Source: an uncultured Planctomycetia bacterium
GTDB lineage: Bacteria > Omnitrophota > Gorgyraeia > VGKH01 > JBHPFN01
Reading direction: 5' to 3'
Assembly: GCA_964406665.1 (NCBI GenBank)
Contig: CAYOSQ010000003.1
Span: 38,641-102,640, forward strand
DNA length: 64,000 nucleotides
Below the pieces are notes generated by a model that was given only the letters and a program-made list of their open reading frames with translations, had not been told where the DNA came from and ran no database searches. Of the stretch, positions 8,014 through 14,100 are shown one piece after another (within the stretch, counting starts at the first letter, position 1; each line of letters opens with the position of its first letter). The translations under genes were made by a program, and so were the position numbers.

Positions 8014-8649
8014 ATGGATGTAAAAAGTTTCCTTCAGCTTCCCATAATGGGGATTTTACGCGGTGTTTCTTCTGAAAGTATAATTCCACTTACAGAATCA
8101 GCAACCTCTTCCGGTTTAAAAACAATCGAGATAACAATGAATACCTCAGGTGCGCCTGAACTTCTTAAGAAGATGGTTAAGGTTGCTTCTGGTAACCTTA
8201 CCATAGGTGCTGGCACTGTTTTAAGCGAAGATGATGCAAAAGAAGCAGTTGATTCTGGGGCAACGTTCATTGTTTCTCCAACACTTGTTTCAGAGGTTGT
8301 AGAGTATTGTGCAAAAAACAAAATTCCTGTATTTCCTGGAGCATTTACTCCCCAAGAAATCTATAATGCCTGGAGAGCTGGAGCAACCATGGTTAAAGTG
8401 TTTCCGGCAAAGTTCTTTGGCCCCGCATATTTTAGAGAAATCAAAGGCCCTTTCAACGATATAAAACTTCTCGCCTGCGGCGGAGTTAATGAAGATACGA
8501 TTGAGCAGTTTTTTGTATCTGGAGCAGCAGCAGTTGCTTTTGGTGGAAGCATTTTCAAAAAAGATCTAATTGAAAGAAAAGATTTTTCTGCAATTGAAAA
8601 AAATATTAGATGTTTAGTTAACAAGGTGAAAAAAGTAAGCTCATCTTGA
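8014..8649 (+). CDS. eda: 2-dehydro-3-deoxyphosphogluconate / 4-hydroxy-2-oxoglutarate aldolase
   Basis: 211 aa. ILRG...IEIT...GAGTVL...FIVSP...GA.TP.E and KVFPA motifs typical of the KDPG aldolase family. Confidence 0.8.
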   Translation: MDVKSFLQLPIMGILRGVSSESIIPLTESATSSGLKTIEITMNTSGAPELLKKMVKVASGNLTIGAGTVLSEDDAKEAVDSGATFIVSPTLVSEVVEYCAKNKIPVFPGAFTPQEIYNAWRAGATMVKVFPAKFFGPAYFREIKGPFNDIKLLACGGVNEDTIEQFFVSGAAAVAFGGSIFKKDLIERKDFSAIEKNIRCLVNKVKKVSSS

Positions 8650-8674
8650 CGTTTTTTCCAGATAGATATACAAT
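8646..8674 (+). promoter_or_regulatory. Candidate sigma70-type promoter (TTGACG-17nt-TACAAT) for the Cys-rich triplet
   Basis: -35 TTGACG at 8646-8651 (overlaps eda stop). 17-nt spacer. -10 TACAAT at 8669-8674. About 40 nt upstream of the TTG start, with a GGAG RBS. Confidence 0.45.
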
Positions 8675-8712
8675 AATTAACAAAACAAGCCTATCAGTTT
8701 AAGGAGAGAGAC

Positions 8713-9636
8713 TTGCAGAAGTATTTTTTCCCCATTCTAATAATTGTTTTTTTCTTATCTTTATGCTTTCCTTGTTTTGCTCAAAGGGAATCAGTTACAA
8801 TTATCACTTATTATCCTGCCCCGTACGGAAATTATAAATATTTAGAAGCTAAAAAGAGTGCTGCAGTAGGAGATATCGGTGATTCAGGTACTCTCGGCAT
8901 AACCGAAGTCGATGATTTGCAGCAAGGAGAGCTGTTTGTAGAAGGTAATGTGACCTTTGGTACGCATATTGTTGATCCACCGATTGGTCAGGCAAAAACA
9001 GGAGAGCTAATTTATTTTGATGATACAGTAGATAACGGGTTTAAATATTTTGACGGAACAGATTGGATGTTGCCTGCTACAATGGGTGGAATGGGTGGTT
9101 GCTATGTTTCTTTTTGCGGGAATAGATTTGAAGGTATGGCCTCTCCAAGTGTACGCCGCTGTAGTTTTAATTCGGAAGCTTCTCCTGCCAATGTTTGCTT
9201 AGATGATTTTAGCCAGGTAGGAGATAGTGGTAGATATGGTTTTTGCTATGTTGATGACTTTCCTTCTTTTCATCATAGACATAAAGTGTATCATAGGCCA
9301 CCGGCTGATGACTCAGGTAATCCTTCTTGTGATGCGGGAGAGATTTTTTTTAGTGAGGGTTCAGCATATCTTTGTTGTAAAGATCCGGTTGCAAGTGTTA
9401 AGGCTTGTTATATATCCTATTGTGATTCTGCAGATGATAATTGTAGCTTTGGAGGAACACCTGCCGATCCTTGCATAGGAGGATTTGCGCAACAGGGAAG
9501 TAGTAGTACTTGGGGTTATTGTGAAGTTACTGCAGGTGGATGGATTCCAGGATATTATTTCCGTCCACCTCATGGAAACTGTGATTGGCGTTTTACTCCA
9601 CATGATATTGGAAACGCTTATTTATGTTGTAAATAA
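8713..9636 (+). CDS. Secreted cysteine-rich protein, paralog 1 (conserved N-domain + two 8-Cys modules, each ending YLCCK)
   Basis: 307 aa. TTG start with AAGGAGAG RBS. Signal peptide ending CFA|QRE. Mature N-terminus TIITYYPAPYG... shared with the next two genes. Two Cys modules (aa ~129-223 and ~231-307). Confidence 0.7.
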   Translation: MQKYFFPILIIVFFLSLCFPCFAQRESVTIITYYPAPYGNYKYLEAKKSAAVGDIGDSGTLGITEVDDLQQGELFVEGNVTFGTHIVDPPIGQAKTGELIYFDDTVDNGFKYFDGTDWMLPATMGGMGGCYVSFCGNRFEGMASPSVRRCSFNSEASPANVCLDDFSQVGDSGRYGFCYVDDFPSFHHRHKVYHRPPADDSGNPSCDAGEIFFSEGSAYLCCKDPVASVKACYISYCDSADDNCSFGGTPADPCIGGFAQQGSSSTWGYCEVTAGGWIPGYYFRPPHGNCDWRFTPHDIGNAYLCCK

Positions 9637-9647
9637 ATGTTTAAATT

Positions 9648-10214
9648 ATGCGAAATAGTTTAATTGTTAACAAAATATTTATTATTTGCATATTTGTGTT
9701 ATTTATTTTCTTCGTGATAGAGAGCTTTGCAGATGAAGGGCTAACGATTACAACTTATTATCCTGCCCCTTATGGGGTTTATAATCAGGTTGAAGCAAAA
9801 GCGGGATTTGCTGTAGGTGATATTTCAGGCATTGGTACAGTGGGGGATTTATATACGGGTGAGCTTTTTATATCTGACGGTGCGATTTTTAAACCAAAAA
9901 ACGTTGACCCTGGTGCAGGTGATGGAAAGCAGGGTGAGCTTATTTATAATGCTACAGAAGATACTTTCAAATTTTTCGCTGACGGCGCTTGGAATAATAT
10001 GATTGGAGGAGAGGTTTGTTATTTATCTTTTTGTAACGGTATGGTAGAAGATGATTGCAGTTTTGGTGGCACACCTTGCATAGGAGGCTTTACAAAACTT
10101 GAACCAAATGATGTTTATGGATTTGATCCTTATTGTGCAAACTGTCAATATGCTTTTGATATAAACGGCCAGGATATTATTTCTTCTGGTAGGATATATT
10201 TATGCTGTAAATAA
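9648..10214 (+). CDS. Secreted cysteine-rich protein, paralog 2 (N-domain + one 8-Cys module, ends IYLCCK)
   Basis: 188 aa. Signal peptide ...ESFA|DEG. TITTYYPAPYG...AVGDI...GELF...FKPKNVDP...GELIYN...FKFFADGAW. Then CYLSFC...DCSFGGTPCIGGF...YC..C...YLCCK. Confidence 0.7.
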   Translation: MRNSLIVNKIFIICIFVLFIFFVIESFADEGLTITTYYPAPYGVYNQVEAKAGFAVGDISGIGTVGDLYTGELFISDGAIFKPKNVDPGAGDGKQGELIYNATEDTFKFFADGAWNNMIGGEVCYLSFCNGMVEDDCSFGGTPCIGGFTKLEPNDVYGFDPYCANCQYAFDINGQDIISSGRIYLCCK

Positions 10215-10226
10215 AATTATTAGCGT

Positions 10227-10886
10227 ATGAAGAAAAACAAAACTTTTCAATTATTATTTTTAGCTATAATATTTTTTGCTCATTGTAATTGTGTTAGAGC
10301 AGAAGATATATCTTTTACAACATATTATCCTTCTCTACAGGGTGTTTATTCGGGCTTATCTTCTGAAGAGGCATTTGCTGTGGGTGATATATCAGATTCT
10401 GGTACTGCTGCAGTAGATGAGACCACTGATTTAGATCAGGGTGAAGTTTTTGTTGAAGATAGCGTAATATTCAAGCCAAAAAACGCTGACCCGATTCCTG
10501 CTGATTCCAGGGCTGGTAGTTTGATATATAATGATGTAGAGGATATGTTTAAATATTATGATGGAACTCAATGGAAAGGGTTTACCGGAGCTGCAATAGA
10601 AGGTGGTGGTTGTTATATTTCTTATTGTAAGTCTCCAGGTGGCATAAGTGGTTTTTGTTCTTTTGGAACTGTCTGGGATGTTGCTGATCAACATCCTTGT
10701 AGAGAAGATTTAGGTTATCAGCAAGTTGGTGTGGGTGATCTTCATGGTAGGTGCTGCAGGGCTTCTAATCCACCTGGTCTTCATTGTACAGGGGCAGATC
10801 ATTTCTATGCTGGTGGAGGCTGTGGCAATGCTGGTAGCAGCTGGGTAATCAGAAATTCTTTTTATATATTTCTTTGCTGTAAATAG
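10227..10886 (+). CDS. Secreted cysteine-rich protein, paralog 3 (N-domain + 10-Cys module, ends IFLCCK)
   Basis: 219 aa. Signal peptide ...VRA|EDI. SFTTYYPSLQG...AVGDI...GEVF...FKPKNADP...GSLIYN...FKYYDGTQW. Cys module CYISYC...FCSFG...PC...CC...C...C...FLCCK. Confidence 0.7.
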   Translation: MKKNKTFQLLFLAIIFFAHCNCVRAEDISFTTYYPSLQGVYSGLSSEEAFAVGDISDSGTAAVDETTDLDQGEVFVEDSVIFKPKNADPIPADSRAGSLIYNDVEDMFKYYDGTQWKGFTGAAIEGGGCYISYCKSPGGISGFCSFGTVWDVADQHPCREDLGYQQVGVGDLHGRCCRASNPPGLHCTGADHFYAGGGCGNAGSSWVIRNSFYIFLCCK

Positions 10887-12954: not shown

Positions 12955-14100
12955 ATGAAGAAAATATTAGTTACGCTTATATTTCTTTTATTGGCGACAA
13001 CATGCTTTGCTGCGCCTAAGATATCTATTGATGATGGATATTTCGATTTAGGCATTATGGCAGAGGGGCAAGTTTATCCTTATAAATTTAGAATTAAGAA
13101 TATCGGCGATGAAGATCTTAAGATAGATGTAATTCATGTAAGTTGCGGATGTGTTAAGATTGTTAAACCGGACGGTCCGATAACTGTTTCTGCGGGTGAA
13201 GAATTTGAATTACAATTTAATTTTGATACGACAGGTTTTTTTGGTGAGACGGTAAAATATATTTATGTAAATACAAATGTGCCAAAAAATCCGTTGCTTA
13301 GGATTAGGCTAGATACTTTTATTGAGGCACAAGAGCAGGTTCTTTTAAGAAGATTTGAGAAGTTTAGCGGCTGGACAGTAGTTGGTGTCGGACTCGTTGA
13401 TGGTGTGAATCCTTGTGCGTTTACTGTGCTTATATTTTTCTTATCATTTTTAAGCTTTGCTGGATATGGTCGGCGTCAGATTATAGTTCTAGGCAGCGTA
13501 TTTATATTAACAGTATTTCTTACTTATTTAGCTATTGGTTTGGGGATATTCGAATTTTTGCACAATCTGCCTAATTTTGAAATTGTTTCAAAAATTATTT
13601 ATTTCATCACTGCTTGTCTGGCTATTGTCTTAGGATTCCTCAGTCTTTATGATTGGTGGATATTTAAAAAGACAAAAGATCCGGATAAGATAAAATTAAA
13701 ACTGCCTGGAATGGTGAAAAAGCAGATTCATGGTGTTATTAAAGATCATACAAAGGATAAATCCAATAAGCAAAGCGTTATAAAACTAGCATTAACAGCT
13801 TTAAGTTGTGGTTTTATTGTTTCTTTACTTGAGTCTGTTTGCACCGGCCAACTTTATGTACCTACGATTGTTTATGTTCTAGGCGTACCTGGTTTGAAGG
13901 CACAAGCCTGGCTGTACTTGTTGTTATACAATTTAATGTTTATTGTGCCGTTGGTAACAATATTTATGTTTGCGCTATTTGGGGTTACTTCAGAAGGATT
14001 TGCTAAGATTGCTAAGTTGCATCTTGCAAAAATTAAGCTTATTACGGCATTTGTATTTTTCTTTTTGGGATTATTTTTATTATTTATTGTTAAACACTAA
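12955..14100 (+). CDS. DUF1573 domain fused to a DsbD/CcdA-like thiol:disulfide transporter membrane domain
   Basis: 381 aa. Signal peptide. DUF1573 signature ...KIDVIHVSCGCVKIVKPDGPI.... Then about 6 TM helices with conserved Cys in VNPCAF (TM1) and SVCTGQ (later TM), as in the CcdA/DsbD_2 family. Confidence 0.6.
   Translation: MKKILVTLIFLLLATTCFAAPKISIDDGYFDLGIMAEGQVYPYKFRIKNIGDEDLKIDVIHVSCGCVKIVKPDGPITVSAGEEFELQFNFDTTGFFGETVKYIYVNTNVPKNPLLRIRLDTFIEAQEQVLLRRFEKFSGWTVVGVGLVDGVNPCAFTVLIFFLSFLSFAGYGRRQIIVLGSVFILTVFLTYLAIGLGIFEFLHNLPNFEIVSKIIYFITACLAIVLGFLSLYDWWIFKKTKDPDKIKLKLPGMVKKQIHGVIKDHTKDKSNKQSVIKLALTALSCGFIVSLLESVCTGQLYVPTIVYVLGVPGLKAQAWLYLLLYNLMFIVPLVTIFMFALFGVTSEGFAKIAKLHLAKIKLITAFVFFFLGLFLLFIVKH

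Follow-up and report, generated by a model that had tools for sequence, protein, structure and literature searches.

How a predicted secreted protein came to end in two copies of one cysteine-rich module, and what the second copy may contribute, is the question raised by a short gene cluster of an uncultured Omnitrophota bacterium (labelled Planctomycetia; GenBank assembly GCA_964406665.1). The window, that is the whole stretch of DNA analysed here, covers 64,000 nt of contig CAYOSQ010000003.1 (positions 38,641 to 102,640, forward strand) and holds three co-directional genes, paralogs 1 to 3, with paralog 1 in first position and gaps of 10-11 nt. Their products have a common layout: behind a signal peptide comes a conserved N-terminal region with the motifs TTYYPAPYG.Y, AVGDI and GELIY..FKY.DG..W, and the C-terminus is a Cys module whose final [YF]LCCK directly precedes the stop codon. 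An earlier inspection of the letters and open reading frames (hereafter the sequence-only reading) had proposed that paralog 1 carries this module twice. Our analysis favours, with a probability of roughly 60%, paralog 1 being a secreted stalk-plus-head protein to which an old tandem duplication gave two heads, the module being ligand-binding and its loop repertoire static.

The internal duplication itself is borne out by several lines of evidence. Over 9097-9633 (codons 129-307), BLASTP aligned the two copies over their full length with 34% identity (E=2e-9), the eight Cys of copy 1 (positions 130, 135, 150, 162, 178, 206, 221 and 222) being all in register with those of copy 2 (232, 237, 244, 254, 270, 290, 305 and 306). 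Their Smith-Waterman score of 115 was matched by 0/5000 shuffles (29+/-5; z=16.5), and the score of 44 left after masking every Cys was reached by 19/5000 shuffles (z=4.0), indicating that the similarity exceeds shared cysteine content. In addition, the hidden Markov model (HMM) of the module matched each segment separately (E 1e-25 and 4e-32), and several motifs beyond the Cys are common to both copies (CY.S.C, CSF, G.C, Y.RPP and AYLCCK). The two-module architecture is not an assembly artefact, since over the locus the window is matched at 100% identity by four contigs from independent metagenome assemblies, and a 44% identical homologue (protein P0002, locus L001) has the same two modules. 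A protein identical to paralog 1 (P0001) is present in NCBI, ENA and Logan.

Two finer descriptions of the copies needed revision. The "His/Pro-rich insert" FHHRHKVYHRPP previously attributed to copy 1 does hold extra residues in the loop before YHRPP, but its YHRPP end belongs to the family-wide [YF][FH]RPP motif, for which copy 2 has YFRPP. Copy 1 is genuinely longer through a 7-residue insertion near its start (GMASPSV) and through additional loop residues before and after YHRPP. Likewise, copy 2 had been described as much closer to the single modules: the direction is right, but the margin is modest (45 vs 37% for paralog 2, 33 vs 29% for paralog 3). Separately, an exact 15-nt repeat CCAGGATATTATTTC occurs at 9547-9561, where it encodes PGYYF in copy 2 of paralog 1, and at 10169-10183, where it is read in another frame (QDIIS) in paralog 2, a protein without the YFRPP motif. 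Its chance expectation was roughly estimated at ~0.006, and the repeat possibly dates from a past frameshift or gene conversion event in paralog 2.

Across the family, the core of the module consists of six Cys, with C1 in GGCY.xY, C4 in C..GF, C5 in WG.C, C6 in PPGG.C and C7 and C8 in LCC, to which the subfamily of paralogs 1 to 3 adds C2 and C3 (CY.S.C...CSF). C1 and C8 are both kept in 44 complete modules and both gone in 6, with no verified case of one only, and the terminal CC is replaced by C[STG] always together with the loss of C1 (P0002 module 1, P0062 module 1, P0150, P0087, P0106 and P0111); the six losses trace back to at least three independent events rather than to six. Such covariation points to a C1-C8 disulfide tying the first strand to the last, and we infer this bond as well as the disulfide map beyond it. 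The ends of the module would then meet, so that it could readily be inserted in tandem, which fits a duplicated unit made of a Gly linker and a module (P0002 and P0062 have GGGG and SAGG, respectively, between their modules).

The AlphaFold model of aa 224-307, computed with 41 modules as alignment, reached a predicted local distance difference test (pLDDT) of 91.2 and a predicted template modelling score (pTM) of 0.74. It is all-beta, with elements at model residues 9-15, 36-49, 57-61 and 72-83 and no helix of 4 or more residues. A Foldseek search of this single-module model against PDB and BFVD gave nothing below E=0.9, and a Pfam search with the 41 modules gave nothing significant (best single-member E=0.009). 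The module could not be placed among C-type lectins either, as its model is without the helices of their alpha/beta fold and its sequence is neither Lcl_C- nor FGE-sulfatase-like. Two sets of candidate relatives were discarded: the bovine ultralong complementarity-determining region (CDR) Fab chains retrieved by the module profile among PDB sequences (E=0.025) were taken as a coincidence of cysteine composition, and collagen IV NC1 and PCSK9, retrieved by Foldseek with the full-length model against PDB, were non-significant and were not used as evidence.

The role of the module can be approached through its relatives of the 6-Cys subfamily, many loci of which have a reverse transcriptase (RT; RVT_1 E=1.9e-17) directly 3' of the family gene. 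These RTs contain an IGNLTSQ motif, which we take to be typical of the RTs of diversity-generating retroelements (DGRs). The RT is followed by a near-copy, or template repeat (TR), of the 40-odd codons that end the module (43 codons with the stop in L053), and at 11 loci the matching variable region (VR) occupies the module's C-terminal end as far as the stop codon. Complete cassettes made of target gene, RT and TR in this order were found at L053:5914-7844, L008:3004-4839 and L031:5890-7398, as well as at L086, L089, L090, L093, L098, L104, L110, L112 and L116, and an RT adjoins the module gene at 12/42 metagenome loci carrying the module. Over 12 paired repeats, 147/168 substitutions coincide with an adenine in the downstream (template) copy; the 12 tabulated pairs comprise 11 module VR/TR pairs and an unrelated repeat picked automatically in L031, whose module pair was aligned separately. 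Templates are rich in AAC codons (e.g. SAGSWGNCNNNDNNNHFRPPGGGCNSGWNSNNIGTAYVCCKQ), a single constant C-to-T difference makes the stop codon of the variable copy, and seven metagenome loci combine an identical TR peptide with differing VRs. The adjacent RT, the TR/VR pairs and the adenine-specific mismatches are signatures that define DGRs, and at no fewer than 11 related loci it is thus the C-terminal half of the module that forms the variable region.

Mutable positions in these VRs are concentrated in two loops, loop 1 between WG.C and [HF]FRPP and loop 2 between GGGC and IG.A..CC, while the Cys residues and the WG, FRPPGG and IG.A motifs remain constant. The length of VR loop 1 also varies, from 8 to 13 residues vs 10 in the TR, among loci with an identical TR peptide (L086, L089, L090, L093, L098, L112 and L116); such indels would not be expected of DGR homing, which to our knowledge only substitutes bases.

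The module is one of several C-terminal domains found in a broader superfamily, which is unannotated and almost entirely confined to Omnitrophota. An exhaustive profile search retrieved 1,810 clusters at 50% identity (E<=1e-3), most of them matching the N-terminal part, and Pfam, NCBIfam and PHROGs searches of the three paralogs gave no significant family. A scan of one genome per species returned 78 loci, most of them from metagenome-assembled genomes (MAGs) that bear the label Candidatus Omnitrophota, about a dozen from MAGs with a Planctomycetia or Planctomycetales label and one from an Elusimicrobiota single-cell genome; some contigs and MAGs hold more than one of these loci, and family genes are frequently arranged in tandem arrays. 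The most conserved part comprises the signal peptide and TTYYPSPYG.Y...AVGD, with a pLDDT <50 in the monomer model. The hairpin element that follows it (G-E-L-x-Y...F-x-Y-Y-D-G-x-x-W) gives weak PHROG tail-fibre, DUF2793 and Mtd_N matches in relatives, and giant relatives repeat it 7-8 times, one of them ending in a Peptidase_S74 chaperone domain. After a Gly-rich linker, the C-terminal heads are either the studied module (...LCC[KQ]) or other types, ending in ...GYCERWC (P0074, P0112, P0131, P0033) or ...VRVCVK (P0028, P0069, P0100), together with one Lcl_C-like head (P0109, a sub-threshold C-type lectin match with E=1.4e-6). At least three other head types on one N-terminal stalk suggest head swapping across the superfamily, which we read as a constant stalk with interchangeable heads.

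The duplication in paralog 1 is old and fixed, and predates the split from P0002. This protein (296 aa, Logan SRR22387764), the sole close relative of paralog 1 among 5.8 billion proteins, is read as its orthologue. Its two-module gene is followed by a paralog-2-like gene and then by the start of a third family gene, so that the whole array is conserved. An insert specific to module 1 is common to both proteins (EGMASPSVRRC in paralog 1, EGLSYPCEQRC in P0002), and a neighbour-joining tree pairs modules by position, grouping the first modules of the two proteins with 76% bootstrap, their second modules with 55%, and the module of paralog 2 with that of its counterpart with 60%. Deep nodes have a bootstrap of about 20% or less, so that the tree does not order the internal and the gene duplications. 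At the DNA level the similarity between the two copies has nearly gone, with only 14-32 nt seeds left. The two-module P0002, the common insert, the positional pairing, these short seeds and the four identical assemblies all support the age and fixation of the event. Homologue searches by word index, with a single protein or a 26-sequence profile, returned 2-3 proteins only, and the exhaustive search of representatives was more informative.

Module copy number was checked across homologues and does vary, nearly all proteins having a single module and two being rare. Among about 90 distinct modules, two-module proteins are limited to the lineage of paralog 1 and P0002, to P0062 and probably to P0132, in which motifs alone identify the second copy (E=0.08). 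Both modules of P0062 are of the 6-Cys type; they match each other with E=4e-16, and paralog 1 is more distant from them than either their partner or the 6-Cys single modules, so that P0062 represents an independent duplication. Two-module proteins were found at 0/42 metagenome loci, and a metagenome scan with the two-module region as query gave no match. Head duplication is thus recurrent yet uncommon.

Under the reading of paralog 1 that we favour, the signal peptide, the TTYYPAPYG segment, the tail-fibre/Mtd_N-like beta-hairpin motif and the Gly-rich linker would form the stalk, and the head would be an all-beta cysteine module of 65-95 aa, made a self-contained unit by the putative disulfide between its first and last Cys. 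Tandem duplication of linker and module would then have given paralog 1 two heads in series. As the module is the part hypermutated by DGRs in related Omnitrophota, it is probably a ligand-binding head, and binding would involve two surface loops, one between the WGxC cysteine and the [YF][FH]RPP strand and the other from the PPGGxC cysteine to the final IGxAxLCC strand, which are the segments rewritten by adenine-directed mutagenesis of DGRs in homologues. The four modules of the window are most divergent at the segments matching these hypervariable loops, and the His/Pro segment of the sequence-only reading corresponds to loop 1. With no DGR at the locus, this genome would carry a fixed repertoire of four different loop sets, of which paralog 1 supplies two and the other two paralogs one each, expressed from one co-directional cluster. 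Secretion, surface display and ligand binding of these proteins are properties that we infer, and their biological targets are possibly host or prey cell surfaces. Omnitrophota is a phylum of ultra-small bacteria for which predatory or host-dependent lifestyles have been proposed. The earlier suggestion of a receptor-binding family under selection gains unforeseen support: the same module is a DGR variable region in related genomes, by a mechanism other than the one envisaged and absent from the window.

Several observations weigh against this reading. No open reading frame of the window resembles an RT (best BLASTP E=0.63 over the 64 kb) and no template repeat was found either, the DNA of the paralogs matching only the paralogs themselves. 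Sequence variation at the locus was not seen among the four assemblies, so that loop diversification is not observed for the window genes; with no RT, no extra module copy and an invariant locus, these three genes are not DGR targets. The homologues linked to DGRs are of the 6-Cys subtype and have ~27-30% identity to the 8-Cys modules of the window, and function is transferred over this considerable distance. An assembly or anchoring partner was not found among neighbouring genes: the search for conserved neighbours that could act in assembly or secretion returned only an HExxH protein and the RT, which accompany 6-Cys subfamily genes and are both absent from the window. Confidence in the model of the N-terminal region is low (pLDDT <50 for aa 24-73 of the AlphaFold monomer model, aa 5-22 forming a helix in the signal peptide zone). 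Finally, the inner modules of P0002 and P0062 have lost the C1-C8 pair, which suggests that inner modules may be under relaxed constraint and not act as second binding sites.

This last point leads to the idea that copy 1 is a decaying module, now a spacer or stalk extension for the terminal one. The dN/dS check envisaged in the sequence-only reading yields no interpretable ratio, dS being saturated (pS 0.65-0.88 between paralog 1 and P0002), and dN alone is readable: module 1 has 0.70 (34% identity) as against 0.39 in module 2 (55% identity) and 0.32 in the N-terminal region. The inner module thus changes about twice as fast as the outer one, which favours a spacer, and across the family the module sits at the extreme C-terminus. 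The inner copy of the window, however, retains its full set of 8 Cys together with the CSF, YG.C, Y.RPP and AYLCCK motifs of the scaffold, and it was kept across a deep split. We consider a decayed inner head unlikely, though it is the main rival reading.

The proteins could also be subunits of a covalently cross-linked surface fibre, in which the terminal CC and other Cys would form inter-subunit disulfides; the Bacillus Ena endospore appendages provide the comparison for such a disulfide-linked fibre. Cysteine-rich proteins, the predicted disorder of the conserved N-terminal segment in the monomer and the common occurrence of tandem paralog arrays with a constant N-terminus would all suit this model. 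By contrast, the C1/C8 co-loss fits a pair within the module, the module folds confidently as a monomer in the model, the targeting of two loops by DGRs is typical of ligand-binding surfaces and not of polymer interfaces, and no recurring assembly genes lie nearby. Cross-linking into a fibre accordingly appears improbable.

Recent or ongoing module shuffling, with a copy number in flux in this lineage, had been advanced by the sequence-only reading. The module is duplicated, copy number does vary among homologues through at least two independent duplications, and a tandem gene array is a substrate for unequal crossing-over. Nevertheless, the second module of the 44% identical homologue, the short seeds left in the DNA, the complete identity of the four assemblies and the single modules at all 42 further metagenome loci depict an old, fixed and invariant locus, and shuffling in progress is largely refuted.

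A prophage or phage-derived tail-fibre origin is less credible still. It would account for the weak PHROG tail-fibre and Mtd_N/DUF2793 matches to the hairpin and for the Peptidase_S74 domain of a giant relative, but a search of 2.9 million viral contigs (IMG/VR) retrieved no relative, and the family is multicopy across one phylum. No phage genes occur near the cluster of the window, which sits between KDPG aldolase and D-3-phosphoglycerate dehydrogenase genes in housekeeping flanks that also include an HMGL-like gene. As for chance similarity between two Cys-biased segments, Cys do supply most of the alignment score (115 with them, 44 once masked), but the shuffling results with and without Cys and the non-Cys motifs in common refute it.

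Table 1. Positions of the cluster genes, signals, modules and loops within the window
Feature	Positions	Strand	Basis or remark
Promoter-like TTGACG-17-TACAAT, 5' of paralog 1	8646..8674	+	Consensus scan, 10/12 match; weak
Shine-Dalgarno-like AAGGAGAGAG ahead of the TTG start at 8713	8701..8710	+	Read from sequence
Paralog 1 gene, two-module protein, 307 aa	8713..9636	+	Open reading frame list; TTG start
Predicted Sec-type signal peptide, about aa 1-23/24 (...CFA|Q)	8713..8784	+	Hydrophobic N-terminus; putative cleavage site
Constant N-terminal region of paralog 1	8785..9096	+	Profile search of superfamily
TYYPAPYGNY, most conserved element of the superfamily	8800-8835	+	In constant N-terminal region of paralog 1
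Tail-fibre-like hairpin motif GELIY..FKYFDG..W	9001-9066	+	In constant N-terminal region of paralog 1
Cys module copy 1, aa 129-223, 8 Cys, ends YLCCK	9097..9381	+	Alignment, HMM
Copy 1 loop 1 (YVDDFPSFHHRHKV), aligns with DGR-hypervariable loop 1	9247..9288	+	Alignment with TR/VR peptides
Copy 1 loop 2 (DAGEIFFSE), aligns with DGR-hypervariable loop 2	9331..9357	+	Alignment with TR/VR peptides
Inter-module linker DPVASVK	9382..9402	+	GGGG at same place in P0002
Cys module copy 2, aa 231-307, 8 Cys, YLCCK then stop codon	9403..9633	+	Alignment, HMM
Copy 2 loop 1 (EVTAGGWIPGY)	9523..9555	+	Alignment with TR/VR peptides
Copy 2 loop 2 (DWRFTPHD)	9583..9606	+	Alignment with TR/VR peptides
Paralog 2 gene, 188 aa, single 8-Cys module at 10011-10211	9648..10214	+	Open reading frame list, module HMM
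Paralog 3 gene, 219 aa, single 10-Cys module at 10602-10883	10227..10886	+	Open reading frame list, module HMM

Some further observations concern the cluster and its surroundings. In paralog 3, the sole module with extra cysteines, a near-identical variant from an ENA contig (P0008) has Gly for Cys177 (HGRCCRAS to HGRGCRAS), which lowers the Cys count from 10 to 9. About 2 kb 3' of the Cys-rich genes, positions 12955-14100 encode a protein of 381 aa whose N-terminal domain is of the DUF1573 / HYDIN-like Ig type, the remainder appearing by eye as a polytopic membrane region with no Pfam match. Across the window (1-64000), 57/59 open reading frames of at least 150 aa lie on the + strand and GC skew is strongly positive (0.14-0.29 per 2 kb), a strand uniformity that is unusual over 64 kb. 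Outside the window, the HExxH protein that adjoins 6-Cys-module genes is ~250 aa long, secreted and rich in Cys; its HExxH motif reads GFLHELGHSLGLRDE, and it gave no Pfam match. It was found at L004:2133-2963, L005:6510-7289, L008:2056-3000, L015:4344-5105, L031:7898-8692, L043:2057-2701, L050:1701-2516 and L053:8325-9140, as well as at 6/42 metagenome loci, and is a possible zinc metalloprotease partner.

A duplicated module is by itself ordinary, and the interest of this locus lies in an undescribed stalk-and-head superfamily of Omnitrophota and in the use, by DGRs of relatives, of a compact, disulfide-rich module as their variable region. As a more tentative proposal, which we hold at somewhat less than even confidence, the module would be an undescribed DGR scaffold distinct from C-type lectins, of ~70 aa, disulfide-stapled and all-beta, mounted on an Omnitrophota stalk, and genomes without the retroelement, such as the present one, would build a fixed repertoire by paralogy and tandem head duplication instead. 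If true, this second and much smaller scaffold would widen the structural solutions for massive sequence variation, provide a module potentially useful as an engineerable binder, and supply concrete candidate molecules for partner recognition by Omnitrophota. The two-headed paralog 1 would then be a natural test of head stacking.

Among known systems, collagen IV NC1 has a comparable layout, with a tandem-duplicated, C-terminal, Cys-rich beta module, and was the top Foldseek match of the full-length model. This match was non-significant (E=0.047-0.5, template modelling (TM) score 0.15-0.20, root-mean-square deviation >11 A) and the single module had none, so that the resemblance is one of layout only. 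The stalk motif GELIY..FKYFDG..W weakly matches the hairpin of phage tail fibres, DUF2793 and Mtd_N (G-x-[LI]-x-Y-N ... [FY]-x-[YF]-x-G-x-x-W), whereas all matches fall below curated thresholds and the Omnitrophota family is cellular and not in viral contigs.

Annotated DGR variable regions are systematically C-type lectin folds, Ig-like folds having been proposed but disputed (PMC8144416), and the VR classes listed in a survey comprise CLec1-3, Ig1-2 and several "unknown VR" from candidate phyla (Wu et al. 2018, PMC5758913). The UVR1-6 and ungrouped VRs of that classification (PMC5758913) resemble the present case in being VRs of uncultivated lineages with no lectin or Ig fold assigned, but they come from a candidate phyla radiation (CPR) set, unlike the Omnitrophota module. 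In the library searched, no paper mentions both diversity-generating retroelements and Omnitrophota. The closest parallels are the DGR variable proteins with a C-terminal VR, namely Mtd of Bordetella phage BPP-1, TvpA of Treponema denticola and LdtA of Legionella (PMC5758913, PMC8144416). Their scaffold is a C-type lectin, whereas the Omnitrophota module is modelled as small, all-beta and disulfide-rich, with no Foldseek, Pfam or PDB-sequence match, and the window genes differ from them in having no RT, TR or variation. A weak Mtd_N-like motif lies just 5' of the module in the L053 homologue (E=0.013, 15.8 bits vs a cut-off of 26.3), the window proteins themselves having no Mtd_N or other Pfam match. 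Like Mtd, TvpA and LdtA, the homologues of paralog 1 pair a constant N-terminal part with a C-terminal VR, accompanied by an RT-adjacent TR and adenine-specific mismatches.

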